Below, piece after piece: positions 487-64,000 of a stretch of DNA of 64,000 nt. The DNA is from Candidatus Parcubacteria bacterium. GTDB lineage: Bacteria; Patescibacteriota; Minisyncoccia; Phycocordibacterales; Zambryskibacteraceae. Where the stretch lies: NCBI GenBank assembly GCA_019661865.1, contig JAIFWJ010000003.1:15441-79440 (forward strand). Direction: 5' to 3'. The translations under genes were made by a program, and so were the position numbers. The notes under the pieces are model-generated. The model was not told the origin of the DNA and ran no database searches. It saw nothing but the letters and a program-made list of their open reading frames with translations. The stretch's first letter is position 1. Each line of letters opens with the position of its first letter.

Positions 487-505
487 TCGGGTGAGCCTAG
501 CCGTG

Positions 506-721
506 TTAGGCTAGGATTCTAAGGTGGATACCAACCTGGATAAAGATCGCCACTGCGACGGAGAACGCCGCAATCGATCCATAGAATATCTTTTTCGCGC
601 GTATCACCCTTCTGTCTCCATCTGGTCTTACTCCCGGTGTCGTGAAGATGACCACCAGGATTACGCATAACCCTGGGCAGCCTAGTAGAACAGAGAGTAG
701 ATACCAAAGACTTTCATCCAT
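506..721 (-). CDS. Small orphan membrane protein (2 TM), stand-alone unit
   Basis: Two hydrophobic segments; GGAGGGG SD; own promoter; hairpin CCTAGCC/GGCTAGG at 496-515 encloses the stop codon. Confidence 0.65.
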   Translation of the reverse strand: MDESLWYLLSVLLGCPGLCVILVVIFTTPGVRPDGDRRVIRAKKIFYGSIAAFSVAVAIFIQVGIHLRILA

Positions 722-729
722 AACCCCTC

Positions 730-751
730 CTATGTTTAAGCTATGTTTAAG
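730..751 (+). repeat. Tandem 11-bp duplication CTATGTTTAAG x2
   Basis: Read directly from the sequence. Confidence 0.9.
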
Positions 752-766
752 ATCCTATCTTTTATA

Positions 767-796
767 ATTATATCATGATGTGTATCAGCTTGTCAA
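767..796 (-). promoter_or_regulatory. Sigma70-type promoter of the 506-721 gene
   Basis: TTGACA-N18-TATAAT with an extended -10 TG on the minus strand. Confidence 0.7.
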
Positions 797-844
797 GTGG
801 GGAAATCGGGGCTCAACTTAGCCTCAGAATGTTACAATAGAAGC

Positions 845-8420: not shown

Positions 8421-8475
8421 TTGAAATATTGTATCACGCCTGGTACTCTCTTGTGAGACTCGTTCCGGGGGAAAT

Positions 8476-9507
8476 ATGAATACCGAACTCATTACTGCAA
8501 TCAGAGAAAGACGAGGGTGTCTCAGTCATCTCCGCACACAAAGAGGAAGAAGGCGTTTCGATACTTCTCTAGATGATCCGTTCTACATGGAAGACGACTT
8601 TGTCTCCGACGAGGCGAAAATTCTCCTGAGTAAGACTTATCGACTGTTAGGTAAGAAAACCCAAGTGTTGACTCTGTCGTCAATCCCGTTTCTCAGAAAT
8701 CGAATTATTCATGTTGGTGAAGTGGTAGGAATCTCGGTAGTAATCGCAGAGATTCTGGGTCTCAATATAAGCCTGGTCAGATCCATTGCCCTCGGTCACG
8801 ATTTGGGGCATGTGCCCTATGGACATCCAGGTGAGGCCCATATGGCAAAGCGTATGAGGCTACCAGAGTTCTGCCACGAGGTAATGGGCCCAATTGTTCT
8901 CCAGAAGATTGAACGAAAGGGTAAAGGTCTCAATCTCACCTTCGAGACTCTTGATGGGATGATGCGGCACAGCGGGAACACTGAGCGTGAGGACATGACT
9001 CAGGAGGCCTGGGTGGTAAGGTTCGCTGACAAGTTCGCATATATTTTCGCGGACTACAGCGACTTAGTCCAACGCATGGTATTCCCAGTTTCTCATGAGC
9101 TCGTAAGTGCGATGGCAGAATTCGGACGCGACCATCGGACAAGGACTTCTACAGCCATTGCTGGGCTCATTATCGAATCTGCAGAGAAGGGCAAGGTGAG
9201 TTTTAAACATTCCGATCTCGCACACAAGTTCAACCACCTCCGCGACTTGATGATGAAGCTGTATGTCAGGGCTACAGAGCAAGATATGACCCCGATCCTT
9301 GACCCGGTGATCGAGTATCTAGGGAAACTCGAGATAGGCAACCCATATCTTCTCCTTGCTCTCATGACTGATGAAGACGTGGCCTTCCTAAACAGTAACC
9401 GAAGTAAGAATGTCACTTTGCTTCAGCATACTGCTCTTCGTGAGAGGTTACCTTATATAGAGGACCTCGGCGATATAGACCTCTGTAATCCAGATCTAGA
9501 CTGGTAG
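8476..9507 (+). CDS. HD-domain dNTP triphosphohydrolase (dGTPase-like), short form
   Basis: KTQV, R.R..H..EV, GHDLGHVPYGH.GE and AD..AY motifs of the dGTPase family. Confidence 0.85.
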   Translation: MNTELITAIRERRGCLSHLRTQRGRRRFDTSLDDPFYMEDDFVSDEAKILLSKTYRLLGKKTQVLTLSSIPFLRNRIIHVGEVVGISVVIAEILGLNISLVRSIALGHDLGHVPYGHPGEAHMAKRMRLPEFCHEVMGPIVLQKIERKGKGLNLTFETLDGMMRHSGNTEREDMTQEAWVVRFADKFAYIFADYSDLVQRMVFPVSHELVSAMAEFGRDHRTRTSTAIAGLIIESAEKGKVSFKHSDLAHKFNHLRDLMMKLYVRATEQDMTPILDPVIEYLGKLEIGNPYLLLALMTDEDVAFLNSNRSKNVTLLQHTALRERLPYIEDLGDIDLCNPDLDW

Positions 9508-9527
9508 CTCCCAAAGGGAGCTTTTTT
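9506..9527 (+). terminator. Intrinsic terminator of the dGTPase-like gene
   Basis: AGCTCCC-AAA-GGGAGCT followed by a T tract. Confidence 0.75.
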
Positions 9528-12054: not shown

Positions 12055-12076
12055 GCTAAATAAAATGCCGCTATAG

Positions 12077-12259
12077 TTAAGCGGCATGCTCGAGTCGTTT
12101 GAGCATGGTCAGACGGTATTTAATGTCGTCGATAATGCTTTGAAACTTCCTGCGGACAGGAGCGCCTCGTTTGTTGTTTTTAAGGCGCTCCTCATAATCC
12201 TTAAGTTCGGCTTCAAGTTGTTCTCTTACGGTTGGGGCTCTGTCCGGGTCCTTTTTCAT
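12077..12259 (-). CDS. Small helical orphan protein, stand-alone unit
   Basis: GGAGG SD, upstream TTGACG, terminator ATGCCGC/GCGGCAT at 12065-12087 with the stop in its loop. Confidence 0.6.
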   Translation of the reverse strand: MKKDPDRAPTVREQLEAELKDYEERLKNNKRGAPVRRKFQSIIDDIKYRLTMLKRLEHAA

Positions 12260-12398
12260 ACGCCCTCCGAAGATATGGTCTTTCCATATATTTCCATAAT
12301 CTCACCTCACGTCAATATGTGGATAGCCAGATATAGGGCTTAAACACGGTTATGGGTCGGAACCTTGATTTCGGCGCTTTTTTCAGTAAAATGGCAAC

Positions 12399-17747: not shown

Positions 17748-17820
17748 GCCGGGATAGCTCAGTTGGTAGAGCAACGGTTTTGTAAACCGTAGGTCGGAGG
17801 TTCGAACCCTCTTCCCGGCT
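17748..17820 (+). tRNA. tRNA-Thr (anticodon UGU)
   Basis: Full cloverleaf: GCCGGGA/TCCCGGC acceptor stem, GCTC/GAGC D stem, ACGGT-TTTGTAA-ACCGT anticodon arm, TTCGAAC T loop; CCA not encoded. Confidence 0.95.
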
Positions 17821-17835
17821 CAAGTTTTCTCTCAG

Positions 17836-17877
17836 CCCCGACGCGCTTACGGTCGGGGAGCCGACCTTGCGTCGGCT
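17836..17877. repeat. Tandem CCGAC/GTCGG palindromic hairpins (REP-like)
   Basis: CCCCGAC-N9-GTCGGGG directly followed by AGCCGAC-N5-GTCGGCT. Confidence 0.8.
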
Positions 17878-22415: not shown

Positions 22416-24503
22416 ATGGCCAAAGAAGCAGAGAAAAAGCGAGAAAAGAAGGGTAGTAATCCTCACTCATACAACGCAGAATCCATCACCGTCCTGGAAG
22501 GACTAGACCCAGTCAGAAAGCGTCCAGGCATGTACATTGGTACCACTGGCCCTGAGGGTCTCCACCACTTAGTATGGGAGATTTTCGATAACTCCAGAGA
22601 CGAGGCCATGGGTGGATTCGCGAATGATATCGAAGTGGCACTCTTGCCAGACAATAAAATCCGCGTGGTAGATAATGGTCGAGGTATACCGGTAGATATC
22701 CATAAACAAACTAAAGTTTCTGCGCTCGAAACTATCATGACTACACTCCATGCTGGAGGTAAGTTCGGAGGTGAAGGATATAAAGTCTCCGGAGGTCTAC
22801 ACGGAGTGGGTGCATCTGTAGTGAATGCACTTTCTACATATGCTCGTGCAGAAGTACACAAGGACGGAGGAGTATATGTGCAAGAGTACTCCATAGGTAA
22901 GCGTAAATCCGCTGTGAAAAAAGTTGGTAATACCAAGCGGGAAGGAACCATAATTACATTCCAACCAGATCCTGGAATATTTCCAGATACAACATTCGAC
23001 TTCGAGCGTATAGTGAACCATCTACGCCAGCAGGCATACTTGGTGAAGAAAATGAGGATCACAATCATCGATGCTCGTGAGGCAGGAAAGTTAGATGACA
23101 CCGATACTTTCTATATCCGTGACCTTGAGCTAGAAGTGCCATCACAGACCTTCTACTTCGAGGGGGGTTTAGTTTCTCTAGTGCGCTTCGAGAACTCACA
23201 TGAGAAGCCGATACATAAAAATATTTTCTATGTGGAGAAGGCCACAAACGGCAATGAATATGAGACAGTAGAAGTGGCTCTTCAGTATGTAGACGACATT
23301 TCTTCAAGAGTGCTTCCATTTGCAAATAATATTTATAACTCTGAGGGTGGCACACATGTCACCGGGTTTAAGACTGCACTCACCAGAACCTTGAACTCGT
23401 ATGCTCGTAAGAATAACCTAGTCTCTGAGAAGGAAGACAATTTCACTGGAGATGATGCACTGGAGGGACTGACAGCAGTCATCTCTATCAAACTTCGTGA
23501 GATCCAGTTCGAAGGACAGACTAAGGGGAAACTCGGGAGCGTAGAAGCCCAGAGTATGGTAGCAACTATATTCGGTGATGCCTTCTCAACATTTCTTGAG
23601 GAGAATCCTGACGATGCTAAAGCAATTATAAATAAAGTTGTCCTTGCTCTTAAGGCGCGCAAGGCCGCTAAGGCTGCCAAGGACTCTGTGTTACGTAAGG
23701 GCGCACTTGAAGGTATGACTCTTCCGGGTAAGCTTGCAGATTGCGAGAGCAAGTCCGCAGAAGACTCGGAGCTCTTCATAGTGGAGGGAGACTCAGCAGG
23801 TGGTACTGCTAAACAAGGTAGAGACAGAAGGACTCAAGCCATACTGCCACTCCGAGGAAAAATATTAAACATCGAGCGTGCACGACTTGATAAAATGCTC
23901 GGCAGTGAACAGATTAAGAATCTTGTCATAGCTATGGGTACTGCCATAGGAGACACATTTGATATTGAGAAACTTCGTTACCATAAAATAATTCTTGCCA
24001 CCGATGCAGACGTTGACGGTGCGCACATCCGTACACTACTTCTTACACTTCTGTACAGACATTTCAGACCGATCATTGATGGTGGTTTCGTCTACATTGC
24101 GCAACCTCCACTCTATAAGATTAAGAAAGGTAAAGAGATTCTTTATGCATACTCTGATGAAGAGCGCGATAGGAAAGTCGGCAAGGATATGAAGATAGAA
24201 GATATTTCTGATGAGCCACAAGAAGATGTACAGAATGCAAACGAAGACCAGGTTGAAGGAGAGGTCAAGGAGAAGAGTAAAACCCAAAAGGTCTCTATCC
24301 AACGCTACAAAGGTCTAGGAGAGATGAACTCAGATGAGCTCTGGGAGACTACCATGGACCCCAAGGTGCGTCTCTTGAAGCAGGTAAATGTAGAAGATGC
24401 TCGTGAAGCGGACAAAGTCTTCGACATCCTCATGGGTACCGATGTGCCATCCAGAAAGTCCTTCATTCAGTCAAACGCCAAGAAAGCCACTCTTGACGTA
24501 TAA
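22416..24503 (+). CDS. gyrB: DNA gyrase subunit B
   Basis: VRKRPGMYIG, GGLHGVG, VEGDSAGG, TDADVDG, QRYKGLGEM; alternative start at 22404. Confidence 0.97.
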   Translation: MAKEAEKKREKKGSNPHSYNAESITVLEGLDPVRKRPGMYIGTTGPEGLHHLVWEIFDNSRDEAMGGFANDIEVALLPDNKIRVVDNGRGIPVDIHKQTKVSALETIMTTLHAGGKFGGEGYKVSGGLHGVGASVVNALSTYARAEVHKDGGVYVQEYSIGKRKSAVKKVGNTKREGTIITFQPDPGIFPDTTFDFERIVNHLRQQAYLVKKMRITIIDAREAGKLDDTDTFYIRDLELEVPSQTFYFEGGLVSLVRFENSHEKPIHKNIFYVEKATNGNEYETVEVALQYVDDISSRVLPFANNIYNSEGGTHVTGFKTALTRTLNSYARKNNLVSEKEDNFTGDDALEGLTAVISIKLREIQFEGQTKGKLGSVEAQSMVATIFGDAFSTFLEENPDDAKAIINKVVLALKARKAAKAAKDSVLRKGALEGMTLPGKLADCESKSAEDSELFIVEGDSAGGTAKQGRDRRTQAILPLRGKILNIERARLDKMLGSEQIKNLVIAMGTAIGDTFDIEKLRYHKIILATDADVDGAHIRTLLLTLLYRHFRPIIDGGFVYIAQPPLYKIKKGKEILYAYSDEERDRKVGKDMKIEDISDEPQEDVQNANEDQVEGEVKEKSKTQKVSIQRYKGLGEMNSDELWETTMDPKVRLLKQVNVEDAREADKVFDILMGTDVPSRKSFIQSNAKKATLDV

Positions 24504-24549
24504 GTTGTAGGTGTTAATAAGTATAGAGACCAAGTGCTAGAGAGGCCTT

Positions 24550-24738
24550 ATGCCTGGTAAATGCGAGCTGACATGCTCGATCTGTTTCCAGATCTTCCCA
24601 GTTCTTACCAACTTTCGGGAATGTAACACCATTGCATGCCCTATTCCAGAAGCGGTAAAGAGGCGAACTTTTCCATATACTTTTCCATATACGAAGGACT
24701 TCGCCACTATGGAGATCATTCCTCAAAACGAGCCATAA
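24550..24738 (+). CDS. Small Cys-rich orphan protein, stand-alone unit
   Basis: AGAGG SD; terminator AAAACGAGC/GCTCGTTTT at 24725-24751 with the stop in its loop; five Cys. Confidence 0.5.
   Translation: MPGKCELTCSICFQIFPVLTNFRECNTIACPIPEAVKRRTFPYTFPYTKDFATMEIIPQNEP
24667..24692 (+). repeat. Tandem 12-bp duplication ACTTTTCCATAT x2
   Basis: Read directly; in frame, giving TFPYTFPYT. Confidence 0.9.
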
Positions 24739-24750
24739 ATCAGCTCGTTT

Positions 24751-25980
24751 TTATTTTTTCTCTAAAATTTCTTTTTTTAATTTCGATATCAGTTCGTCTA
24801 CAGAGACAGTTTCTTTCTTATCATCACGGCTCTCTAGAGTAAGTTTCTTCTCCAGAACTTCCTTGTCACCAAGCACAACTGCATAAGGAACCTTCTCAGT
24901 CTTAAAGTTTCTAACTTTCTTTCCAAGGGTCTCATTTGAATCATCGAGTTCGAATCTAATACCTTCTTGTCGGAGTCTCTCGGAAACTTCTTTGGCATAT
25001 TCAAGATGCTTATCACTTATGGGTAAGATCTTTACCTGTACAGGTGAGAACCAAAGAGGGAAGGCGCCGGCATACTTCTCTATAAGAAATGCCATGATGC
25101 GCTCTATGGCACCGATTGAGGAGCGATGAATTACAAAGGCTCTGTGTTCCTTACCATCCTCGCCTATATATTTGAGGTCGAATCTATCTGGCATGCAGAA
25201 GTCATACTGGACGGTGAAAGCCGTGTCCTCCTTATCATTTACATTTTTCATCTGTACATCAATCTTGGGTCCATAGAATGCTGCTTCTCCCTTAGCTTCC
25301 TCAAACTCGCTACCGCGCTTCTTCATAAGTTTTCTCAATAGATCCTCACCCTTTTCCCATGCAGCATCATTCTTGTAATACTTTTCTGTATCACTTCTGT
25401 CTCCAAGTGAGAGTCTAAATCTATAATCCTCATTTAATTTAAGTCCGAAGACCCCGGCTATGTATTCTATAAGATCCAAGGCGTTACTGATCTCGTCCAT
25501 GGCCTGCTCTTCAGAAGCACAGATAATATGCGCATCGGCTAGACAGAATGTGCGGACACGCTGGAGTCCCATAAGTTCGCCCGACTGCTCGTATCGGTAG
25601 AGTTGGGCCAATTCTGCAATACGCATAGGAAGTTCTCTATACGAGCGAGGTTTCGACAGGTATAGCTCGAAGTGGTGCGGGCAGGTCATAGGACGGAGCA
25701 TAAACTCCTCGTCATCTATCACGATAGGCGCGTACATCGAGTCTTTGTAGTGTGGGTAATGCCCTGATTTCTTGTATAGGTCGAGCTTGGCAATGTCCGG
25801 AGTCTTCACATGGAGGTATCCACGCTTCAGCTCCTCATCGACAATAAATCTCTCAAGTTCTCGGCGCATTGTTGCGCCTTTAGGGAGAAATAGTGGGAGA
25901 CCTTTGCCTACGGTGTCTGAAAAAGTGAATAATTCTAGCTCACGTCCTAGTTTCTTATGGTCTCTTTCGTCTGGATTCAT
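24751..25980 (-). CDS. thrS: Threonine--tRNA ligase lacking the N-terminal editing domain
   Basis: Starts at RDHKKLG; RPMTCPHH, AFYGPKID, IHRS; 409 aa. Confidence 0.96.
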   Translation of the reverse strand: MNPDERDHKKLGRELELFTFSDTVGKGLPLFLPKGATMRRELERFIVDEELKRGYLHVKTPDIAKLDLYKKSGHYPHYKDSMYAPIVIDDEEFMLRPMTCPHHFELYLSKPRSYRELPMRIAELAQLYRYEQSGELMGLQRVRTFCLADAHIICASEEQAMDEISNALDLIEYIAGVFGLKLNEDYRFRLSLGDRSDTEKYYKNDAAWEKGEDLLRKLMKKRGSEFEEAKGEAAFYGPKIDVQMKNVNDKEDTAFTVQYDFCMPDRFDLKYIGEDGKEHRAFVIHRSSIGAIERIMAFLIEKYAGAFPLWFSPVQVKILPISDKHLEYAKEVSERLRQEGIRFELDDSNETLGKKVRNFKTEKVPYAVVLGDKEVLEKKLTLESRDDKKETVSVDELISKLKKEILEKK

Positions 25981-26065
25981 AAGGAGAGTTTATCAGCAAA
26001 ATTTATGGTTGACCACTACTTTGAGCCCGTGATTTAATGGAGAAAGACCACACATTTGAGGGAAA

Positions 26066-26524
26066 ATGCGCATAGATTACACGAGGTTCCCCAATGTGGA
26101 ACCGAAGGGTACATTCGTGGATCAAAGGGAGATCATCAAGATATTTGCTGACATCCTGGAGTATGAGCCATCGGTGCCCAATGGGTTCAAGGCATACATC
26201 ATGCTCGCTGAGGATAAAAATTCTCAAAGAACTGGAGTTTTACTCCTTCCCAACCAATGCAAAAAGCAGGATGAAGCACGTGAGTTTGAAGTCCAGATGA
26301 CACCAGCTCACATGGTTGAAAAATTGGTCCAATGGGAAAGTGAGCGGTGGATTCGGTTCGATCCATCAGTGAACAAGGGTCACATCAAGGCATGGGAGAT
26401 ATGGTCTGTAGAAATTCCAATCCCTGAATCTGCCATAGTCAGTCGTGGCGCTATCGTATGGACCGCCTGGATGCGAGATCGTCGTCATACTCCTCGCGAA
26501 GGAGATTTGTCACCGAGTTCATGA
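26066..26524 (+). CDS. Orphan hypothetical protein, stand-alone unit
   Basis: TTGACC-N18-TTTAAT promoter, GAGGG SD, 20-bp palindrome ACCGAGTTCATGAACTCGGT at 26512-26531 spanning the stop, followed by a T tract. Confidence 0.7.
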   Translation: MRIDYTRFPNVEPKGTFVDQREIIKIFADILEYEPSVPNGFKAYIMLAEDKNSQRTGVLLLPNQCKKQDEAREFEVQMTPAHMVEKLVQWESERWIRFDPSVNKGHIKAWEIWSVEIPIPESAIVSRGAIVWTAWMRDRRHTPREGDLSPSS

Positions 26525-26541
26525 ACTCGGTTTTTATTTTG

Positions 26542-29753: not shown

Positions 29754-30359
29754 ATTACACCTAAACTCACTAGACAAATCGTAGGTATTGATGAGGCAGG
29801 TAGAGGTCCTCTGGCGGGCCCTGTCGCCGTCGGAGGAGTGGTCATAAAGGCAGGATTTAATAAAAAGTTTTTCAAAGGGATTAAAGATTCTAAGAAGCTT
29901 ACTCCAGAAGAAAGGGGACTCTGGTATCTTCTAGCACTTGAGGCCAAAAGGCAGGATAACTTGGACTTCGCTGTATCTCTTGTTTCTGAAAGGATCATAG
30001 ACAAGCATGGTATTGCGTATGCGATACGGCTGGGTATAAAGAGAGTGATAGAGAAATTAGGAATAGACACCCAGGCTCAAATTTTCTTAGACGGAGGTAT
30101 TAAAGCTCCTGAGAGATTCCCACATCAATTAACTGTCATACGCGGTGATGAAAAGATCCCCGTGGTCTCACTAGCGAGTATTTGTGCCAAGGTTACTCGT
30201 GACAAATACATGATAAAGCTCGGACAGAAGTATCCTGATTTCGACTTCCATGTACATAAGGGGTATGGCACTCTTTTACATAGAGAAAGGTTGAAGAAAT
30301 ATGGCCCCGTTGAGCCACATCGTAGAAGCTTCCTTCGCAACTTGACACTAAAGAAATAA
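29754..30359 (+). CDS. rnhB: Ribonuclease HII with an apparent non-canonical ATT start
   Basis: The catalytic GIDEAGRGPLAGPV motif lies in frame upstream of the tracked GTG at 29838; DSKKL, DGG, ASICAKVTRD, KGYGT. Confidence 0.9.
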   Translation: MTPKLTRQIVGIDEAGRGPLAGPVAVGGVVIKAGFNKKFFKGIKDSKKLTPEERGLWYLLALEAKRQDNLDFAVSLVSERIIDKHGIAYAIRLGIKRVIEKLGIDTQAQIFLDGGIKAPERFPHQLTVIRGDEKIPVVSLASICAKVTRDKYMIKLGQKYPDFDFHVHKGYGTLLHRERLKKYGPVEPHRRSFLRNLTLKK

Positions 30360-30381
30360 CTGTGCTATAATTAAGAAAGAC
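30342..30381 (+). promoter_or_regulatory. Promoter of the Nudix gene
   Basis: TTGACA-N18-TATAAT-N6-AGAC; the -35 lies inside the rnhB 3' end. Confidence 0.7.
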
Positions 30382-30404
30382 CAAAACATAGACCGCGAGG
30401 CCTC

Positions 30405-30896
30405 ATGGTTATCCCTATCGAGAGTTACAATTCTTCTGTCATTGAATGGCGGGAGAGAGAGGGGGTGATCGAGGTCCTGGTCTTGGACTCCACTCCCACG
30501 AACCCAGATTTTCCGGACGATGTCCAAACAAAGTTCCCTGGAGGTGGTGGTGAAGAGGGGGAGTCGCCAGAAGATACCGCTCGTCGAGAGTTCAAAGATG
30601 AGACCGGCCGCTCTATCCGTGAGGATGCAAAGTTAAAGCCGATCTACTCACGACTTGTCGCTGATCATCATAAGGTTGGGTTTCTCGTCCACGAGTCTGA
30701 CTGTGAAGGTCAACTGGATGAGGTGCCCAGACTTGAAGGAGATTCGATTATCAACAATCGGCGGTATCTCACCATCGATCAAGTGATTGCCGATATCTAT
30801 CAGCCAAGGCACAACCAGACTCAGCTACATCTTGTAAGAAACGCTAAACGGGAGATCGAAAAGATCCTCCTAACTCGGGCCCTGCAGAAGGTATAA
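30405..30896 (+). CDS. Nudix hydrolase, stand-alone unit
   Basis: Nudix box GGGEEGESPEDTARREFKDETG. Confidence 0.85.
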   Translation: MVIPIESYNSSVIEWREREGVIEVLVLDSTPTNPDFPDDVQTKFPGGGGEEGESPEDTARREFKDETGRSIREDAKLKPIYSRLVADHHKVGFLVHESDCEGQLDEVPRLEGDSIINNRRYLTIDQVIADIYQPRHNQTQLHLVRNAKREIEKILLTRALQKV

Positions 30897-30946
30897 AAAC
30901 CAAGCGGGGCCTTTCTTTTTTATGAATATTCTGGTAGAGTCGTTTT

Positions 30947-34003: not shown

Positions 34004-36238
34004 ATGCTTCATCTCAAGTCTATTGAATTGTCGGGATTCAAATCCTTCGCCAAGAAGAGTGTCTTAGAATTTACCACTCCAGTTTCTGCAATTGTTGGAC
34101 CCAACGGTTCTGGTAAGTCGAATGTAGCCGAGGCCTTTCGCTTTGTTTTAGGAGAGCAATCCATTAAATCTATGCGAGGCAAGAAGGGTGAAGATCTTAT
34201 ATTTAATGGAGCGGGTGGAGAATCCCGGGCCAACAGAGCCTTTGTGAAGGTGGTCTTCGACAACTCCAATAGACTTTTCTCTGTGGATTTCCCCGAAGTC
34301 ACTATAGAGAGAGTGGTCCATCGAGATGGAGTAAATGAATATCTTATAAATGGAAGTCAGGTGAGACTCCGAGATGTCTTGGAACTTCTAGCCAGAGCTC
34401 ATATTGGCGCATCAGGACACCACATTATCTCTCAGGGAGAGGCAGATAAGATCTTAAATGCCTCAACCCGCGAAAGAAAGAGTATGATCGAGGACGCACT
34501 GGGACTTAAGCTTTATCAGTATAAGAGAGCCGAGAGTGAGAAAAAGCTTGAAAAAACTTTTGAAAATATCCAGCAAGTTGAGTCATTAAGAAAGGAGATC
34601 GCTCCGCATATTAGATTTCTAAAGAAGCAGACAGAAAAGATAGAGAAAGCCGAGAGTGTTCGCCTTGAGCTCGAGACTCTAGGACAAGAGTATCTTCGAC
34701 GCGAGGAAGATTATTTAAATAAAGAGAGAGATTTAATACACACAGAGAAGAAACCGATACTGGCAAGACTAAAGGTCTTGGATGAGGAGCTCGGAAATGC
34801 TCGTAAAATCTTAGAGAATTTCGGTAAGAAAAATAAGAAAGATTTCGAAGTGCTTGATATAGAAGCTGAAATAGCCAGTGCAAGGGCGGAAAAGGACAGA
34901 CTAATGCGTGAACTGGGTAAGGTGGAGGGATCAGTGGAGGCCCAAGAAAGAATGTTAAGAAGTGAGAAGGATCGGATAACGAATGCTGAGGAGAAAACAG
35001 TGCGTCTCCGAGACGTAGAAGAACTACAGTCTGATATAGAAGATGAAATAAAATCTGCAGAAGGAGATTCGAATAATCTAATTAAAGTTTTATATAGAGT
35101 TCTCGATAAAATTAGCTCCTTTATAAAATCCAAGAAAGTGGATACAAACTCACCCGGGGTAAAAGAGGTCGAGAGAGCTCTTTCAGAACTCGGTAAGGAG
35201 AAAGAGAAACTGGAAAAAGAGCTCAAACGCTCGGATGAAAGAGAGAAGAGTCTACGAGAGAAATATGAAAATCTGAAAAAAGAAATTGAGAAGGACAAAG
35301 ATACTTCCCACGATGCGGAGAAGAAGGTCTTCACCATCATGTCGGAGGAAAATGAACTTCGTTCTAGAGAAGAATCTCTAAGAATAAGAGAGGAGCAATA
35401 CAAACACCTCTTTGAGAACTTCAAGCGCGACTTGGAAGAAATATCCAAGATCGCAGGACCAAGTATTTTAGGATTTAGGTCAGTCTCTGTTACTCATGAA
35501 GACAGATCGAAGCAGGAAGACAGAAGACATGATGTGGAGAGACTCAAAATTAGACTTGAGGAGTCTGGTGTCTCGGGAGCAGGGGACATTATGAAGGAGT
35601 TTAAAGAAGTTTCTGAGCGAGATGAGTTTCTTTCGCGTGAGCTCCTCGACTTGGAGAAGTCGGCTGAGAGTCTCAAGACCTTAATAAAGGAGCTTGAGGA
35701 GAGACTCAATGAAGAATTTAAGTCAGGACTCGAGAAAATAAATAAAGAATTTAATACACTCTTCACCATGATGTTCGGCGGTGGAGAAGCGCATCTGACT
35801 CTTACTAAAGAGAAGAAAAGACGAATAGGGGATCTAGAAATTGAAGAAGGTATAGATCAGGAAGTAGGAGAGGAGGTGATAGAGGAAGGATTAGATATTG
35901 CTGTAAATCTTCCAAGGAAAAAGATCAGAGGGCTAGCTATGCTCTCAGGCGGCGAGAGAGCTCTGACCTCCATTGCACTCCTCTTCGCCATTACAGAAGT
36001 AAATCCTCCACCATTCATCATTCTCGATGAGACCGATGCAGCATTAGATGAAGCCAATTCTAAAAAATATGGTGACATTGCCGAGAGGCTTTCCAAGCGC
36101 TCGCAACTTATCCTTATCACTCATAACAGAGAGACCATGAGTCGTGCTGGAGTTATATATGGTGTAACCATGTCTGGAACCGGTGTTTCTAAACTTCTAT
36201 CTATTGCCTTCGACCAAGCAGTAGAGGTTGCAAAATAG
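34004..36238 (+). CDS. smc: SMC-family ATPase, short form with no recognisable hinge
   Basis: GFKSFA, GPNGSGKSN Walker A, LSGGE signature, IILDETDAALD Walker B/D-loop, ITH; 744 aa. Confidence 0.88.
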   Translation: MLHLKSIELSGFKSFAKKSVLEFTTPVSAIVGPNGSGKSNVAEAFRFVLGEQSIKSMRGKKGEDLIFNGAGGESRANRAFVKVVFDNSNRLFSVDFPEVTIERVVHRDGVNEYLINGSQVRLRDVLELLARAHIGASGHHIISQGEADKILNASTRERKSMIEDALGLKLYQYKRAESEKKLEKTFENIQQVESLRKEIAPHIRFLKKQTEKIEKAESVRLELETLGQEYLRREEDYLNKERDLIHTEKKPILARLKVLDEELGNARKILENFGKKNKKDFEVLDIEAEIASARAEKDRLMRELGKVEGSVEAQERMLRSEKDRITNAEEKTVRLRDVEELQSDIEDEIKSAEGDSNNLIKVLYRVLDKISSFIKSKKVDTNSPGVKEVERALSELGKEKEKLEKELKRSDEREKSLREKYENLKKEIEKDKDTSHDAEKKVFTIMSEENELRSREESLRIREEQYKHLFENFKRDLEEISKIAGPSILGFRSVSVTHEDRSKQEDRRHDVERLKIRLEESGVSGAGDIMKEFKEVSERDEFLSRELLDLEKSAESLKTLIKELEERLNEEFKSGLEKINKEFNTLFTMMFGGGEAHLTLTKEKKRRIGDLEIEEGIDQEVGEEVIEEGLDIAVNLPRKKIRGLAMLSGGERALTSIALLFAITEVNPPPFIILDETDAALDEANSKKYGDIAERLSKRSQLILITHNRETMSRAGVIYGVTMSGTGVSKLLSIAFDQAVEVAK

Positions 36239-36289
36239 CTCTTGCTGAACTACTCTTTCCCTAGTCCGCACAACTGACATGGAGGACAT

Positions 36290-36595
36290 ATGGGTAAAAA
36301 GGGCTTTGGTACAATTAGCAAGGAGAGGCATCTACAGATCGCAAGTACTGGCGGCAAGGCAGCTCATGCCAAGGGTAGAGCTCACGAGTGGGACACTGAG
36401 GCAGCCCGTGAAGCAGGTAGAAAGGGAGGACAAAAGATCTCCAAGGATCGTGAATACATGCGTGAGCTTGGTCGCAAAGGCGGGCATGCTCGCAAAGGTG
36501 TCAAAAACCGTCCGAGGATCCGAGCCTCGCAGCCTGACAAGGTTATGTCAGACCTGGATCTCAGATCAAGTGAGTTCCAAACCGGCAATGCATAA
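36290..36595 (+). CDS. KGG-repeat stress protein (YciG/Con-10/GsiB-like)
   Basis: IASTGGKA, AREAGRKGG and MRELGRKGG repeats; GGAGG SD. Confidence 0.85.
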   Translation: MGKKGFGTISKERHLQIASTGGKAAHAKGRAHEWDTEAAREAGRKGGQKISKDREYMRELGRKGGHARKGVKNRPRIRASQPDKVMSDLDLRSSEFQTGNA

Positions 36596-36602
36596 GTGAT
36601 AT

Positions 36603-36624
36603 GAGCGACATAGTCGCTCTTTTT
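36603..36624 (+). terminator. Intrinsic terminator
   Basis: GAGCGAC-ATA-GTCGCTC-TTTTT. Confidence 0.75.
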
Positions 36625-39385: not shown

Positions 39386-39414
39386 GAAACGCCGGCCCAT
39401 AGGGTCGGCGTTTC
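39386..39414. terminator. Terminator between khpA and the convergent orphan gene
   Basis: GAAACGCCGGCCC-ATA-GGGTCGGCGTTTC. Confidence 0.75.
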
Positions 39415-39441
39415 GCGTGTGGTTAGAGCGTGTGGTTAGAG
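39415..39441 (+). repeat. Tandem 13-bp duplication GCGTGTGGTTAGA x2
   Basis: Read directly; duplicates the stop-codon region of the 39436-39750 gene. Confidence 0.9.
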
Positions 39442-39750
39442 GTAGAGAATGGCGTCCTGGTGATTTCGACTGGGATGAGAAACCCTCCATGTGCGAAATC
39501 CCTTTCCAATCTCATTCATGCAGTGAAGCAGGAAGAGACAGAAGGAGATTATACAGATGATTGCCATGAGATCCATGCTGAATCCCAATACCTGGCATTC
39601 CCAGTTCGACATTGGAACGAGTGTTCTCCCACTTTTGAAGATGAGAGCCGCATCCTCGAACGACTTGGCACTAATCCCAAGAAGGGAAGAGCCGATGACG
39701 GTGAAGCTGAGCCACGACACGAAGCTGAAGAGGAACTTGATTTGACGCAT
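39436..39750 (-). CDS. Orphan 2-TM membrane protein, stand-alone unit
   Basis: Two hydrophobic segments; TTGACA-N18-TATACT promoter at 39793-39822; GGGAG SD. Confidence 0.6.
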   Translation of the reverse strand: MRQIKFLFSFVSWLSFTVIGSSLLGISAKSFEDAALIFKSGRTLVPMSNWECQVLGFSMDLMAIICIISFCLFLLHCMNEIGKGFRTWRVSHPSRNHQDAILYL

Positions 39751-39850
39751 ATCTCTCCCGGAAGAGAAGGTGATGCTGCGCTGACTGTTTGAAGTATATC
39801 ATACTATTGTGAGACTTGTCAAGTAGGTAGAAATAGGCTAGGGTAGGGGA

Positions 39851-58267: not shown

Positions 58268-58380
58268 GGGGAAATTATAGCTCAAAATAGGAAACAAATC
58301 TGCCTTTTTGTATGCTTGACTGAGCCCACTTCGAGTGATATTGTCCGAAGAGACAACGTTCAAAGCTACTAGGAGGTTCG

Positions 58381-59406
58381 ATGCTGTCACTGACTATGGT
58401 TTGTTGGACTCTGGTGATTCTCGGCCTCTTGTCTGGGTTCTATGCACTTACTCATCAAATATGGTGGGGGAGCGAGGGGGACAAGGGGCTTGTGAGGCAG
58501 AGGTACTACAAACATGGATGTTGGGTTCTGATCTTGCTTGGAGCTGGAGGATTGTGGTGGAATATCTCAAATGATAAGGGCATTCCATCCTACGGGCCTT
58601 CATTACCGGCAAATTCCAGGTCACAACAAAAAGTTGAACAGTTAACAAAACTAGCCGAGGGTGCTCCTATGGTAAATCGAGGAACACATTCTTCAGTTGC
58701 TTTAATCTTTCAGAAAGGGGTGCAGGCAACTAGTCACGTATCTGTCATCGGCTGGTTTCTCATCGGTTCGGGAGTACTATTAGGCCTCGGGTTGTTTCTC
58801 CTATTGTATTTGGGGAAGCGGGAGCCTAACGCGGCTGCTCCTAGAATGAGAAGGCTTCAGAGCAGACGAGATTGGGGCGTGAGTTCGAATTTCGGTGCTG
58901 CGGCTCTTCTCATCCTGGCTCTACTGTGGTGGGGGGTACCAAAGGTGATCCATTGGATGAGTCCAGAACCAGTCAAAAGTCCACAAAAGGTGGCCACAAC
59001 GGATACTCATGCAACAAAACCCGACACCCTGCCTACCTTGAGTCCTGTTCTGCCAGATACTTCTAATCCAGATACCCTCCCGCAGAAAACGACAAAGATG
59101 CCGGTGGTTAAAGACAAGCCAAAGAAGCCAGAGAAAAAGATCGAGGCTGGTGAAGTGGCTGCCGCCATACCACTGACTCTTCCGGACTCGCTCAAGGCAA
59201 GTATCGTGGAGAAGAATTGTCCGAAGTATTTGGACCGATTCATCACCATGAGAGACAAGGCCTATGACGGACCAGTGAAGGATTTCGGTCTTCTGGCTCG
59301 GGCGGTCATGGCTTGTAACGAGTGGCGAAAGAATACTAAGCCTGAACCTAAGCACCGAGAAGCTCTTGATCAAGCCCGACTAGTCGTGGCTGGTCTAGGG
59401 ATGTAA
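58381..59406 (+). CDS. Orphan multi-TM protein with Pro/Thr/Lys-rich linker and C-terminal helical domain, stand-alone unit
   Basis: About four TM segments; TTGACT-N17-TATTGT promoter; AGGAGG SD; terminator at 59405-59430. Confidence 0.7.
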   Translation: MLSLTMVCWTLVILGLLSGFYALTHQIWWGSEGDKGLVRQRYYKHGCWVLILLGAGGLWWNISNDKGIPSYGPSLPANSRSQQKVEQLTKLAEGAPMVNRGTHSSVALIFQKGVQATSHVSVIGWFLIGSGVLLGLGLFLLLYLGKREPNAAAPRMRRLQSRRDWGVSSNFGAAALLILALLWWGVPKVIHWMSPEPVKSPQKVATTDTHATKPDTLPTLSPVLPDTSNPDTLPQKTTKMPVVKDKPKKPEKKIEAGEVAAAIPLTLPDSLKASIVEKNCPKYLDRFITMRDKAYDGPVKDFGLLARAVMACNEWRKNTKPEPKHREALDQARLVVAGLGM

Positions 59407-59443
59407 CCCACGGCATGTCTGTGGGTTTTTATATACTAAATGT

Positions 59444-60193: not shown

Positions 60194-61984
60194 TTATTTC
60201 AGATCTTTTCTCTGAGACTTGGCGCGTTCTTGCTGAGTGAGAATTTGTTTACGGAGACGGACGGACTCTGGAGTGATCTCAATATATTCGTCATCTTTCA
60301 TAATCTCCATGGCACGCTCGATGTCGAGTTTGAATGCGGGAGTTAGATATATGCTGTCATCAGATCCAGAGGCACGCATGTTGGTGAGCTGTTTACCCTT
60401 GGTTGGGTTTACATACAGATCTTCGCCCTTGGAAGTATTGCCCACAACTTGTCCTTCATAAATCTCTGCACTTGGTTCTATATAAAGTGTGCCGCGTTGC
60501 TGTAGGTTGTCGAGTGAGAAGGCTAAAGCCTTCCCTTTCTCCATCGATATCATCGAACCCACATCATGATGGTCTATCACTCCGGCATATGGCTTGAATC
60601 CTATAAATCTCGAAGAGAATATTCCGAGTCCTCGGGTATCGACTACGAACTGATTTCTGTACCCTAGGAGTCCGCGAGTGGGTGCTTCAAAGGTGAGTCT
60701 CTGCTGTCCATTTTCACTTCTCATATCAAGTAGAGACGCCCTGCGAGAAGTAAGAGTAGATATGACTCCACCAGACATGCTCTCTGGTACATCTATTACC
60801 ACTTCTTCGAAAGGTTCCAGTTTCTCACCATTCTCTTCTTTAATAATTACATGTGGTTGAGATACTTGAACTTCGAATCCTTCTCTACGCATGTTCTCAA
60901 GTAGTATGGCGATGTGAAGTTCTCCACGGCCAAACACCGTTAGGTATTCACTTGATGAGAAATCTACTTTGAGTCCGACATTTACCTCTAACTCTCTTTC
61001 AAGTCTTTCTCGAATCTGTCTACCTGTTACGAACTTACCTTCACGACCAGCGAAGGGTGAGTCATTGACGAAGAAGTTAAGTGAGATAGTAGGCTCGTCC
61101 ACATTTATAGCTGGGAGTGCCTCTCCGTGCTCATCTCCTGAGATAGTATCTCCAATATATATATCTGGAAGCCCAGCGATCATAACGATATCTCCTGCAA
61201 GTGCCTGGTCTCGTTCCTTTCTAGAGAGTCCTTCAAATGTGTAGAGCTTGGTGATCTTACCTTGATACTTCTCCCCACTGTGCTTCGTAACCCAGACGCT
61301 CTGACCATTCTTAATGGTACCTTCATATATGCGAGCGAGTGCCAAGCGGCCTAGGAAGTTGTCATATGCAAGATTGAACGGCTGAAGACGCACTGGTACA
61401 TCGAGCCTTTGAGTCACTGGAGGAACTTTCTCAAGAATTACATCAAGAAGAGGTGTCAGATCTTTTGAATCATCTGTGAGATTCTTCTTTGCAATTCCTT
61501 CACGACCAATTGCATAAACAGTTGGGAAGTCGATCTGATGGTTGTCAGCCCCGAGCTCTAAGAAAAGTTCCAAGACCATTTCATGCACAGCCTCTGGTCT
61601 GGCGGCCGGCTTATCGATTTTATTTATAACTACAATTGGCTTGAGCCCAAGCTCCAGGGACTTCTTAAGTACGAAACGGGTCTGAGGCATAGGTCCTTCC
61701 TGAGCATCAACTACTAAGAGCACAGTGTCTATAGAACGGAGTACACGCTCGACCTCAGAACCGAAGTCCGCATGTCCAGGAGTGTCCACAATATTTATCT
61801 TCGTGTCCTTATAGAAGATAGAAGTGTTTTTAGAATATATGGTAATACCGCGCTCCTTCTCGAGAGCATTTGAGTCCATGGATACACCCTCCTCAACCAT
61901 GCCAGTCTGACGCATCAAAGCGTCGGTAAGAGTGGTCTTACCGTGGTCGACGTGAGCAATAATAGCGATATTTCTAATTTCCAT
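60194..61984 (-). CDS. typA: Translational GTPase TypA/BipA
   Basis: IAHVDHGKTTL, DTPGHADF, NKID, GRGELH, EITP..RLRK. Confidence 0.96.
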   Translation of the reverse strand: MEIRNIAIIAHVDHGKTTLTDALMRQTGMVEEGVSMDSNALEKERGITIYSKNTSIFYKDTKINIVDTPGHADFGSEVERVLRSIDTVLLVVDAQEGPMPQTRFVLKKSLELGLKPIVVINKIDKPAARPEAVHEMVLELFLELGADNHQIDFPTVYAIGREGIAKKNLTDDSKDLTPLLDVILEKVPPVTQRLDVPVRLQPFNLAYDNFLGRLALARIYEGTIKNGQSVWVTKHSGEKYQGKITKLYTFEGLSRKERDQALAGDIVMIAGLPDIYIGDTISGDEHGEALPAINVDEPTISLNFFVNDSPFAGREGKFVTGRQIRERLERELEVNVGLKVDFSSSEYLTVFGRGELHIAILLENMRREGFEVQVSQPHVIIKEENGEKLEPFEEVVIDVPESMSGGVISTLTSRRASLLDMRSENGQQRLTFEAPTRGLLGYRNQFVVDTRGLGIFSSRFIGFKPYAGVIDHHDVGSMISMEKGKALAFSLDNLQQRGTLYIEPSAEIYEGQVVGNTSKGEDLYVNPTKGKQLTNMRASGSDDSIYLTPAFKLDIERAMEIMKDDEYIEITPESVRLRKQILTQQERAKSQRKDLK

Positions 61985-62018
61985 ATTGGATAACCGAGTC
62001 GCTATTAAAGCACGAATT

Positions 62019-62564
62019 TTACTTCTCCTCAAGAGTACCTGCACGCACTACAAAGGTCCGATTGGTAAGTACTGTCGGCTCAGCTGCTAAGGGTTCGCCC
62101 GCATTTCTATCCAGGTAAGTAAGCTTTATAACACCATTAGATATTGAAATAGTTTTAGGAGTTACTCTGTCACCTATAAATACAGCATTTGAGCCTTTAT
62201 ACATTACTGTGCCAGAAAGGTATGCAGCGATGTAAACAAATACTCCAGAACCTCCACTGTCTTTAACTAAAAGTAGTGCAGTGTCGTTCTTGTCATCGCC
62301 ATTTAAGTCTCCATAAGCCAGATCGTTTGTAAGTGTGGTGTTATCTGTTATGGCAGAGCCAGGGATAACTTGAGTTTCTGCAGATCCTTTCTTAAGAGTT
62401 ACTGGACCATCCTCGAACTCAAATGTAGCGTTCGACGGATCTGGATGAGTAGAAGTGGGAGTAACTTTAACCTCTGGAGTACTGTTTGTCCCTGGTGTCT
62501 TCAAATATTTCCAACCGAAAAAGCCGAGAATTAGTACAACAATCAGTATTAAAATTTTCTTCAT
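62019..62564 (-). CDS. Membrane-anchored or secreted hypothetical protein
   Basis: N-terminal TM, GDLNGDDKND Ca-binding-like loop, GGSGVF, IGDRV. Confidence 0.75.
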   Translation of the reverse strand: MKKILILIVVLILGFFGWKYLKTPGTNSTPEVKVTPTSTHPDPSNATFEFEDGPVTLKKGSAETQVIPGSAITDNTTLTNDLAYGDLNGDDKNDTALLLVKDSGGSGVFVYIAAYLSGTVMYKGSNAVFIGDRVTPKTISISNGVIKLTYLDRNAGEPLAAEPTVLTNRTFVVRAGTLEEK

Positions 62565-62589
62565 TGCATTTATTATAACAAAAAAGCCC

Positions 62590-63378
62590 TTACACGATAG
62601 CAAGGGCTCGGCTTAAGATCTTCTCAGCCAGTCGGACATGGAGGTCTCTTCGGACCACAGTGATGAGAGTGAATTGTGATACTAGATGTTGATCCACCAG
62701 CTCATCTCGATTGTGGTGAGGATATTTGTGAGTGTATCCTACGGTGAGCGGATATACACCCTTCGCCCAAGTGGAAGGCGCAAGTCCCAGACTTCTCAAA
62801 GAACGAGAGATCGCATCATCCTGGAAGAGCTCAGTGAGCTTTTTCCTGCCCACTACAACGTCCTGTTCTTCTGGTCTGCCGGCGTGGTGACCTGTAACAG
62901 TTCCGAGCGTATTTCTTAGACCATTAATGATTCGAAAGTCTAAGAGATAAGCCACGTCGACATTCTTGGCCCAGTACTCGTTCAGTTCCTTGTCCTTACT
63001 CAGTCCGCGAAGCATGGAGACCTTGTTAGTGCGAGGACTGAAGCCTCTCGGTCTCTCTTCACCCTTATGGATAGAACGCCGACTTCTGTACGGGATCAAT
63101 GCATACAGAGTGTCACGAAGGTCCCTTGGTAGGTCCCACTCATAGCGTTCGATCTGACTCGTTCTAAGTCCGTGTGCGTTGCCATCACCTCTGGCTTTTA
63201 CTTCTACACGGATACCCAGCTCCCCCGAGTGGATATCACCGTAATCTGGTTGGCCTGGAGGCGAGAGTTCGCACCCAAGTGTAGCTGCCATGAGACGCTC
63301 GTAGAACGTGCCTGCCTTTCCCTGAATATTTTTGGCTCGCGATCGCAGCAAATTATACTCGGCGTGCGCATTAGCCAT
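62590..63378 (-). CDS. Putative PD-(D/E)XK restriction-endonuclease-like nuclease, stand-alone unit
   Basis: G.FYE helix, PDYGDI and VEVKAR motifs; GGGGGA SD; terminator at 62585-62608 overlaps the stop. Confidence 0.6.
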   Translation of the reverse strand: MANAHAEYNLLRSRAKNIQGKAGTFYERLMAATLGCELSPPGQPDYGDIHSGELGIRVEVKARGDGNAHGLRTSQIERYEWDLPRDLRDTLYALIPYRSRRSIHKGEERPRGFSPRTNKVSMLRGLSKDKELNEYWAKNVDVAYLLDFRIINGLRNTLGTVTGHHAGRPEEQDVVVGRKKLTELFQDDAISRSLRSLGLAPSTWAKGVYPLTVGYTHKYPHHNRDELVDQHLVSQFTLITVVRRDLHVRLAEKILSRALAIV

Positions 63379-63501
63379 AAATCCCCCAAAGATCAGTCTG
63401 GCGTGATTATAAGTTATGGGATAAGACACTTACCAGTGGACAATGGCACTCCGACACATATAATGCACTGAGACTACTTTGAACCTTAAAAAAGAGGATC
63501 T

Positions 63502-64000
63502 ATGGCCCAAGGACGCTATGTAGTAGACCATGAGCGCGCCGAGTGGGTCATAAAAACCCTCATCGACGCATGGAGGCAGAAGCTCCCTCCTTTCGACCAC
63601 GCCGTGCCTGTGCCCGAGTATCTTCCCAAGACTCTTGTGCCCGGAAGTGTGGAGCATGCGCTGTGGCTCATGGCAGGGTTGCCTTACATGAGAGGTCGGA
63701 TAGACAGCGCACAAGCTTATATCCGCCTTACTCACGTTTATGACCTTCACCCTTGGATGTTTGATCCAGAGACCTTCAGGCATTCAAGCATGAAGCATAT
63801 GAATGCTCGTGCCAAGATGCACAAGATCCTGAGAGAAAATGGTTTGGGATTTAATGTTCGAGAGACGATCAGGTTTTGGGATTTTAATTTCAAAAAACTT
63901 GCTCGCTTCTGGGATGGGAATCCCTTGAAGATCTTCAAGGAGGCAGGGGATTACGATGCGCTCTGTAAGCTTTTCATGGAAGGGAAGAAGGACCCCAATA
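63502..64000 (+). CDS. Partial ORF running off the window (missing from the ORF track); possible HhH-GPD / endonuclease III-like helical protein
   Basis: 166 open codons, MAQGRYVVDHERAEWV...YMRGRIDS...HPWMFDPE...FWDGNPLKIF; AGAGGA SD and TATAAT-N6-AGAC upstream; family assignment is tentative. Confidence 0.65.
   Translation, partial: MAQGRYVVDHERAEWVIKTLIDAWRQKLPPFDHAVPVPEYLPKTLVPGSVEHALWLMAGLPYMRGRIDSAQAYIRLTHVYDLHPWMFDPETFRHSSMKHMNARAKMHKILRENGLGFNVRETIRFWDFNFKKLARFWDGNPLKIFKEAGDYDALCKLFMEGKKDPN

Follow-up and report, generated by a model that had tools for sequence, protein, structure and literature searches.

Shine-Dalgarno-led, AG(A)-starting single genes in a Parcubacteria lineage whose 16S rRNA lacks the anti-Shine-Dalgarno: candidate messages for host ribosomes

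The DNA analysed here is a 64-kb window (the whole stretch, C7:15441-79440) of the 598,658-base, nine-contig genome of a Candidatus Parcubacteria bacterium (G000, rated 97% complete), and our subject is a set of eleven single-gene units that lie one by one between its core genes, each with a -10-like hexamer, a Shine-Dalgarno (SD) sequence and a terminator hairpin (Table 1). We assign the genome to the Candidate Phyla Radiation (CPR) because the closest named relatives of a protein encoded in the window are Parcubacteria/Paceibacteria. A preliminary description of the window had taken the units for a common pool of modular genes with a shared AGAC start. We found all 11 of its motif sites again (8 AGAC, 2 AGTC and 1 AGAT), each 6 nt past a -10-like hexamer, and its extended motif GAAAGACCA does precede the 12259, 26066 and 30405 genes. 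The single-gene layout is also real: the units belong to one class with one expression design, which is absent from core genes and reaches genome-wide. The evidence below suggests that this class may be written for the ribosomes of another bacterium.

We defined the class without regard to the transcription start (+1), by an SD, a free upstream region, a promoter and a U-tailed hairpin. For gene calling we built our own dicodon model (581 and 563 genes in two calls). Promoter scores came from a -10 matrix derived from leaderless genes plus a -35 matrix, and SD strength was taken as the duplex energy against the canonical anti-SD. Every class count depends on this gene caller and promoter model, and the +1 is predicted from sequence throughout. 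The strict class comprises 72 units out of 242 SD-led candidates, that is, about 70 scattered single genes with a sigma-70 promoter, or roughly 10% of genes, spread across all nine contigs. It excludes two of the window units, the 24550 and 30405 genes.

The predicted RNAs of this class share a 5′ end. The +1 of the 72 units reads AG in 52, AGA in 40 and AGAC in 20, against a genome background of 7.5%, 2.7% and 0.46% (p 2e-42, 2e-43 and 4e-30). Because the fourth base varies (AGAC 20, AGAA 10, AGAT 8, AGAG 2), the signature is AG(A); the shared start thus stands and AGAC is its commonest form, not the motif itself. In units with a promoter score of at least 9, AGA lies exactly 6 nt past the -10 box in 25 of 38, and the strongest 22 promoter-like sites have AGA at offset 6 in 13 cases and at offset 5 or 7 in none. 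Genome-wide, start codons are commonest at the same distance (97 of 579 genes, versus about 11 at other offsets), an offset of leaderless starts that supports our placing of the +1; some 130 of 563 genes appear to lack a leader.

The start is specific to the class and to the lineage. AG follows the strong promoters of SD units in 25/31 cases in G000, 7/16 in its relative G004 and 11/22 in its relative G007, versus 0/21, 0/21 and 1/24 for leadered genes without an SD (pooled p 7e-16, the three genomes being kin). A general preference of RNA polymerase for G at +2, which the preliminary description had allowed for, does not fit an AG at just 1 of 66 such promoters, nor the lack of an AGA excess elsewhere in the phylum; likewise, AGAC is not equally frequent in leadered core genes, as AG was found at none of their 21 strong promoters in this genome. 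With a pattern of -35, -10, AGA and GGAG we obtained 287 matches, a few of them double hits on one promoter, from 36 of 41 relatives; all 25 family members were among these, with 246 matches, and leaving out G018 lowers the sum to 276 in 35 of 40. With ACA swapped for AGA, the same relatives gave 4 matches, none in the family. Among another 120 genomes of the CPR phylum the two patterns scored 72 and 59 matches, and in two CPR controls with an anti-SD, class-like units numbered 1 and 2 per 200 kb and never began with AG. Exceptions to the restriction are the transfer-messenger RNA region (AGAT) and khpA (AGGC). In predicted folds the first 3 nt are unpaired in 37 of 52 AG-starting units. We found no further leader motif, with 5-mers such as GAACC and GTTCA in just 4 of 37 leaders. 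In 80 kb read of one more genome (G442, from the group with an SD-less dGTPase) there were five AG-start promoters, with SD mixed.

The 3′ ends are also distinctive. In a set of SD/AG units chosen without reference to the terminator, a hairpin of -10 kcal/mol or stronger follows 34 of 54, compared with 40 of 346 core genes. The stop-in-terminator ends noticed in the window hold for the AGAC subgroup, in which the terminator overlaps the coding end in 17 of 20 units, and are less frequent among the other AG units (14 of 32; p 0.004); median leader length is 22.5 nt in that subgroup and 34 nt in the others. A consensus -35 is present in 37/72 class promoters and in 3/111 leaderless core promoters, a contrast that arises partly by definition. 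The proteins are short (median 123 aa), and Pfam names 12 of the 59 scanned outside the window. Among the products that could be named are dGTPase, Nudix, transaldolase, dihydroorotate dehydrogenase-like, subtilase, SPFH, PadR and KGG proteins. Relatives contribute an SD-led ClpP-like gene (G004) and an SD-led ThyX (G007). An M16-like peptidase occurs in two copies in G000 (C4:9533-10792 and C4:97440-98708), of which one is SD-led and of the class and the other a core paralog without an SD, at 25% identity. At C3:53448-55534 of the same genome (L054:13448-15534), an SD-led 566-aa lipoprotein follows a strong AGAT-start promoter and a leader of about 385 nt, which is possibly a structured RNA.

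The cell that carries these SDs has lost the partner for them. CCTCC is missing from the 16S rRNA tail in this genome, in every one of the 18 genomes of the order that gave a legible tail (41 searched) and in 2 of 2 further genomes. Elsewhere in the phylum, the 30 top-scoring 16S loci gave 27 readable tails, all 27 with the anti-SD, top scorers leaning canonical. Anti-SD loss in a Parcubacteria subgroup has been published (Tsurumaki et al. 2022, PMC9297842). A conserved TTCAA word stands in place of the anti-SD across the order (16S tails of L001, L006, L007 and L016, for example) and can form a small hairpin in the genus. With the cell's own tail, class leaders pair at -1.2, core leaders at -1.5 and random ones at -1.6 kcal/mol; with the canonical anti-SD, class leaders reach -8.7 (partly by definition) and core genes -1.7 kcal/mol. 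SD spacing in the class peaks at 4-6 nt. Core genes are leaderless or SD-free: a strong SD precedes 1.5% of them, fewer than for random ATGs (p 4e-10), which agrees with the mostly SD-free core neighbours noted in the window. Judged by predicted pairing, the class SD is a signal that the cell's own 16S rRNA cannot pair with.

Other readers of the signal were considered. An alternative SD fitted to the cell's own 16S tail was ruled out, as that tail pairs with neither core nor class leaders. CsrA, a possible reader of GGA, stayed below cut-off, with just a weak match inside a 365-aa frame, and no bS21 was found in the genome. The intergenic stretches bearing CCTCC, which were listed and not folded or compared, offered no clear candidate for an anti-SD small RNA. 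One core gene, rpsL of the anti-SD-less G007 (L076:18688-19101; C8:18160-18573 in G000), was picked up with an SD-like GGAGG upstream. The tRNA set of G000, as called by ARAGORN, includes Ile(TAT), Arg(GCG), Arg(TCG) and a call of 'Stop(TTA)'; neither Lys(TTT) nor Pro(TGG) is listed.

A second mismatch concerns lipoproteins. Bacteria mature their lipoproteins through Lgt and LspA, and we found Lgt above cut-off in 0 of 61 and an LspA match in 0 of 61 family genomes. All five lipobox proteins of G000 are nevertheless SD-led, as are 11 of 15 lipobox calls in five genomes together. A 469-aa class lipoprotein, present in 23 of 61 family genomes, had no match in a word search of 5.8 billion proteins. 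Its 24 loci, less one broken, two cut at contig ends and one duplicate, left 20, with starts chosen lipobox first; a lipobox-type signal was found in 20/20 (19 by pattern, 1 by eye) at 24-39% identity, and so was an SD of -7 kcal/mol or stronger. An alternative lipidation route outside Lgt/LspA may exist. A class subtilase lipoprotein is 59-73% identical to its listed matches, and the 4 of these 120 that carry an organism name are three Gemmatimonadota and one Acidobacteriaceae. A further class lipoprotein gave no usable match in an ESM Atlas search. The orphan signal peptides may also look Gemmatimonadota-like.

Codon usage sets the class apart as well. G+C at synonymous third codon positions (GC3s) for the class, the ribosomal-protein set and the bulk was 0.52, 0.43 and 0.39 in G000, 0.62, 0.41 and 0.38 in G004, and 0.74, 0.44 and 0.40 in G007. 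The class value in G040 was 0.68, with bulk at 0.38-0.40 and ribosomal-protein sets at 0.41-0.44 across genomes. Furthermore, the third-position G+C (GC3) of class orthologs moves jointly by genome (0.61, 0.72 and 0.85; 0.50, 0.57 and 0.70 in a second set). This joint shift disfavours passive decay of acquired genes and suggests that the class is still being adjusted to something other than the cell's own translation apparatus.

The SD is also kept over long divergence. The window dGTPase is a member of a CPR family: of the 120 matches listed, 8 name an organism, which in 7 of them is a CPR bacterium. A search returned 79 loci, of which 34 CPR-group loci were analysed; three had no open reading frame, which left 31. 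An SD precedes 20 of the 31, including all 12 closest, compared with 15 of 74 neighbouring genes. A terminator follows 20 of 30, GC3 exceeds that of the neighbours in 26 of 31, and the flanks are unlike those here. Of the 6 genomes with members of a 189-aa protein family, 5 keep its promoter, SD and terminator behind leaders that are unrelated. Across these families the SD is retained while leaders diverge. A dGTPase subclade (L201-L209; for example L201:1690-1765) keeps a sigma-70 promoter, often AGAA, and the terminator behind A/C-rich, SD-less leaders, and may mark hosts that do not use SDs.

How the units came to their sites is a separate matter. Flanking core proteins are mostly 55-84% identical to their G007 and G004 counterparts, and the synteny comparison asked for by the preliminary description gave mostly empty sites: 6 of 8 testable flank pairs in G007, the other two holding diverged orthologs of the same layout, and 6 of 7 in G004, the other one being occupied. 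Two of the window units are therefore vertical and evolve fast, which partly goes against an inserted pool. Just 5 of 72 class proteins have tblastn matches in G007, a search (E 1e-4) that missed two true positional orthologs, so that 'absent in relatives' undercounts vertical inheritance. As had been said of the window, no integrase or attC is in evidence: the best match to the integron integrase model TIGR02249 scored 86 bits against a cut-off of 265, and the attC core-site pattern followed 0 of 72 units. Flanking repeats were no longer than in shuffled pairs, there was no target-site duplication, and among the 72 upstream or downstream regions we found no DNA similarity beyond physical overlaps and no near-identical upstream repeats. 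Because integrase, attC, flanking repeats and shared DNA are all missing, the layout looks convergent and maintained and is not the footprint of one recombinase; the earlier suggestion of insertion by one mechanism falls with this and with the diverged orthologs at two window sites. Origins are mixed, with an old CPR family (dGTPase), a family-specific orphan (the 469-aa lipoprotein) and a Gemmatimonadota-like acquisition (the subtilase). A phage origin was rejected, since PHROG matches are few (6 of 69 units, none structural) and the units are flanked by core genes.

Within the window, a Pfam family was recognised in 3 of 11 units, compared with 44 of 51 other proteins, and PADLOC gave matches for two of the 11, a weak one for the Nudix and another for the dGTPase, whose possible role in defence may be considered. 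The weak -10 boxes pointed out earlier for the 12259 and 24550 genes are AAATAT and TAATAA; TTGACG lies upstream of both. All eight hairpins listed in the preliminary description fold and seven have a U-run after them. The eighth, at 496-515, has none; the U-tailed terminator of its gene is a second hairpin, at 463-488. The terminators of the 36290 and 39750 genes lie downstream of the stop. At the site of the 24550 gene, G004 is empty and G007 has a gene that has diverged but keeps the Cys spacing, AGAC and SD; at that of the 30405 Nudix gene, both relatives have diverged Nudix orthologs with promoter and SD. The 341-aa orphan as query had no match in 40 relatives.

Table 1. Single-gene units of the window (window coordinates; SD, Shine-Dalgarno sequence; TM, transmembrane segment)
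Unit	Strand	Gene	Product	Promoter	Predicted start	SD	Hairpin or terminator	Site in G007 and G004
463..796	-	506-721	71-aa two-TM orphan	TTGACA/TATAAT	AGAT at 760	SD	hairpin over stop 496-515; U-tailed terminator 463-488	
8421..9522	+	8476-9507	343-aa dGTPase, CPR-resident family		AGAC at 8456	GGGGG	9506-9522	empty in both
12065..12315	-	12077-12259	60-aa orphan	weak -10	AGAC at 12281	SD	over stop, 12065-12087	empty in both
24493..24751	+	24550-24738	62-aa Cys-rich orphan	-35 in gyrB 3′ end	AGAC at 24527	SD	24725-24751	
26009..26531	+	26066-26524	152-aa orphan		AGAC at 26045	SD	over stop, 26512-26531	empty in both
30342..30912	+	30405-30896	163-aa Nudix hydrolase	TTGACA/TATAAT	AGAC at 30378	SD	30877-30912	
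36228..36619	+	36290-36595	101-aa KGG-repeat protein		AGTC at 36263	SD	36603-36619	empty in both
39386..39822	-	39436-39750	104-aa two-TM orphan	TTGACA/TATACT	AGTC at 39786	SD	39386-39414	empty in both
58316..59427	+	58381-59406	341-aa three-TM orphan		AGAC at 58351	AGGAGG	59405-59427	
62585..63411	-	62590-63378	262-aa protein, PD-(D/E)XK-like motif by eye, no Pfam hit	TATAAT	AGAC at 63399	SD	62585-62608	
63437..64000	+	63502-64638 (past window end)	378-aa protein, divergent from 62590-63378		AGAC at 63471	SD	64637-64659	

Several features of the window stand beside the units. The -35 boxes of three of them lie within the last codons of upstream gyrB, rnhB and smc (24493-24498, 30342-30347 and 36228-36233), and the one in gyrB is conserved in G007. 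The divergent pair at 62590-64638 has back-to-back promoters 72 nt apart; the 378-aa protein resembles CPR clusters with an AGOG/HhH-GPD lead, and together with the PD-(D/E)XK-like nuclease it possibly forms one DNA-attacking or repair module. At 31204-32130 on the forward strand lies a NusB-Nudix fusion, full length in G004, G007 and G040 (63-76% identity), with weak matches to Ap4A hydrolases and Dcp2, which makes it a candidate handler of RNA 5′ ends. An Rfam scan of the window returned tRNAs only; two adjacent tRNA-Thr(TGT) calls occupy 17748-17938, the second of which is weak (34 bits) and may be a remnant.

An SD without an anti-SD, a lipobox without Lgt and foreign codons are together most simply read as translation in a host, and RNA is the favoured cargo, given that the 5′ end is particular to the class and that the units are short, monocistronic and closed by a terminator hairpin. 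We therefore propose, with a probability of about 0.58, that the SD-led units are mRNAs transcribed by the parasite that we infer this bacterium to be, exported into an attached bacterial host and translated by host ribosomes. The parasite's own RNA polymerase would make short monocistronic RNAs, whose 5′-pppAG(A) end would set them apart, since housekeeping RNAs start with AUG or avoid AG; this end would mark the RNAs for export, mark unexported copies for decay by RppH/RNase J, or do both. These RNAs would cross the parasite-host contact, probably through a relaxase-less type IV system, and host ribosomes, tRNAs and Lgt/LspA would make the products. Predicted membrane proteins and lipoproteins would remodel the host envelope, and the nucleotide enzymes (dGTPase, Nudix, dihydroorotate dehydrogenase-like protein, transaldolase and, in G007, ThyX) would redirect host metabolism. 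For this family, the host may be a member of the Gemmatimonadota. Loss of the anti-SD would also blind the parasite to ingested host mRNA. The wider proposition, that each genome carries two translation codes, with anti-SD loss deafening the ribosomes to ingested host mRNA and about 10% of genes serving as AGA-tagged mRNA effectors injected into a bacterial host, we consider only slightly better than an even bet. The genome encodes a VirB4-type ATPase, RNase J above cut-off and six Nudix domains, although the two Nudix proteins compared with solved structures match no RppH. Type IV secretion systems (T4SSs) of the CPR mostly have no relaxase (Quinonero-Coronel et al. 2025, PMC12102498). One CPR parasite in culture is joined by tubes to the cytoplasm of its host, whose RNA it takes in (Katayama et al., bioRxiv 10.64898/2026.06.21.733656), and Bacillus subtilis RppH strictly requires G at RNA position 2 (PMC7144940).

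Several observations weigh against export to host ribosomes. We infer the +1, the export step and the host, all three, from sequence; the 72-unit set contains a few false or mis-started calls, the gene caller and promoter model being home-made. The AG signal is weak in G025 (2/18) and G040 (2/15), and G025 has no GC shift (n=2 in one count, n=7 in another). Four of the 15 lipobox calls are not SD-led, most of which look like false positives, and terminators were found at just 6 of 18 loci of the 469-aa lipoprotein within a 60-nt window. Eleven of the 31 dGTPase loci are SD-less, several of them still starting with AGAA and one (G444) also without an anti-SD, so that the SD is not obligatory for this gene, unless those hosts do not use SDs; a blind promoter picker put AG at just 5 of 20 dGTPase starts. 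The transaldolase, epimerase, M16 peptidase and SPFH class members could serve the cell itself. Finally, the published RNA traffic, in the text available, runs from host to parasite and in another CPR class.

Other readings keep some of these observations and strain at others. The class might be an accessory regulon translated by the cell's own ribosome, with a protein or small RNA reading GGAG and AGA acting as a promoter or decay signal. The G that RppH demands at position 2 (PMC7144940), the six Nudix domains and RNase J, and the existence of SD-less, AGA-starting dGTPase genes speak for this. It is unlikely all the same, as neither CsrA above cut-off nor bS21 was found, the GGAG element keeps ribosome-type spacing, the class codons are unlike those of the cell's highly expressed genes and the lipoboxes are left unexplained. 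The same misfit of leaders and codons, with no pairing to the 16S tail, counts at the sequence level against T4SS protein effectors made on the cell's own ribosomes. Were host ribosomes and tRNAs instead to flow into the parasite on attachment, with the SD as a contact-activated switch, SD and codon shift would be explained without an export step, and a cultured CPR parasite does import host RNA and deplete host rRNA. In the available text of that report, however, the imported RNA is described as food, not as working ribosomes (bioRxiv 10.64898/2026.06.21.733656), and lipobox proteins need the membrane-embedded Lgt and LspA; we give this idea slim odds. Equally slim are those of genes reaching the host as DNA, T-DNA-like or by transient conjugative transfer, for expression by host RNA polymerase and ribosomes. 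DNA transfer accounts just as well for SD, lipobox and codon shift, and it suits the consensus -35 of class promoters. The units are scattered over all nine contigs without borders or shared DNA, though, the lineage-specific 5′ AGA is easier to understand as a tag at the RNA level, and most CPR T4SSs have no relaxase (PMC12102498), a statement on the CPR at large, no relaxase search having been made in this genome.

Two further readings are historical. If the units were horizontally acquired moron-like cassettes, SD, lipobox and GC would be donor relics in slow decay, as the mostly empty sites in relatives, the few matches in G007 and the one gene clearly near Gemmatimonadota proteins could suggest. 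We hold this to be very improbable, and for conserved families it is largely refuted: SD and lipobox are intact in all 20 members of the lipoprotein family despite their low identity, the closest named relatives of the dGTPase are CPR, ortholog GC3 varies by genome when the core stays near 0.40, and an AGA start confined to one lineage would not be common to unrelated donors. The cassette pool of the preliminary description, placed integron-like by one site-specific recombinase, would account for the uniform layout and the clean empty sites; with no integrase, attC, long flanking repeats or shared DNA to go with it, and with vertical orthologs at two sites, it is scarcely credible.

Export of messages to host ribosomes has partial parallels in known systems. 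In Agrobacterium, transferred DNA (T-DNA) carries genes that sit in a bacterial genome in the host's expression code, as one bordered DNA segment that a relaxase moves into a plant. Here too the genes are written in the code of the host that would run them, and the expression signals (SD, lipobox, codons) misfit the carrier cell, as for host-expressed transferred genes; the differences are about 70 dispersed units without borders and, as we read them, a bacterial host and an RNA cargo. Phage morons are lone genes lying among conserved ones, each with a promoter and a terminator of its own. Our units share that framing of one gene; they differ in sitting in a cellular chromosome, with few PHROG matches and with signals that misfit the carrier cell. 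The Parcubacteria without a 16S anti-SD (PMC9297842) share the anti-SD loss, found here in all 18 genomes, whereas the text available from that paper does not treat mRNA signals, an SD-bearing gene class, an AGA start or the lipoprotein conflict. The OT8 parasite on Chloroflexota (bioRxiv 10.64898/2026.06.21.733656) has an RNA-carrying, cytoplasm-to-cytoplasm contact, and its codon usage insulates it from host mRNA; it differs in its host-to-parasite flow, in RNA serving as food and in its class (Microgenomatia), and the main text of the preprint does not use 'Shine', 'anti-SD', 'effector' or 'lipoprotein'. The relaxase-less T4SS of Patescibacteria (PMC12102498) is a candidate conduit, to which the VirB4-type ATPase of this genome corresponds; mRNA is not proposed as its cargo in the available text. 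RppH/RNase J decay in B. subtilis (PMC7144940) shares the G at position 2 that 52 of 72 units have, but no RppH ortholog was identified here, and SD and lipoboxes would be left unexplained. Start elements are treated in PMC12641261 with, in the text available, one Saccharibacteria dataset. Our literature search, with subscription journals mostly outside its scope, found no paper on SD-led genes, host-translated mRNAs or Lgt-less lipoboxes in CPR.

CPR bacteria make up 8-15% of bacterial diversity according to the preprint of Katayama and colleagues (bioRxiv 10.64898/2026.06.21.733656). The class described here bears on how they manipulate hosts, what their relaxase-less T4SSs carry and why some lost the anti-SD. 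It offers a reason for that loss, and a simple sequence rule (strong promoter, AGA, SD, terminator) picks likely host-acting genes from the genome alone. If our reading is right, hosts of uncultured lineages could be predicted from the codons and signal peptides of the class, with Gemmatimonadota as the lead for this family. Should export fail as an explanation, something still reads the SD and matures lipoproteins in a cell without known machinery for either. Should it hold, these units would represent mRNA delivery from bacterium to bacterium, a new kind of interbacterial secretion.

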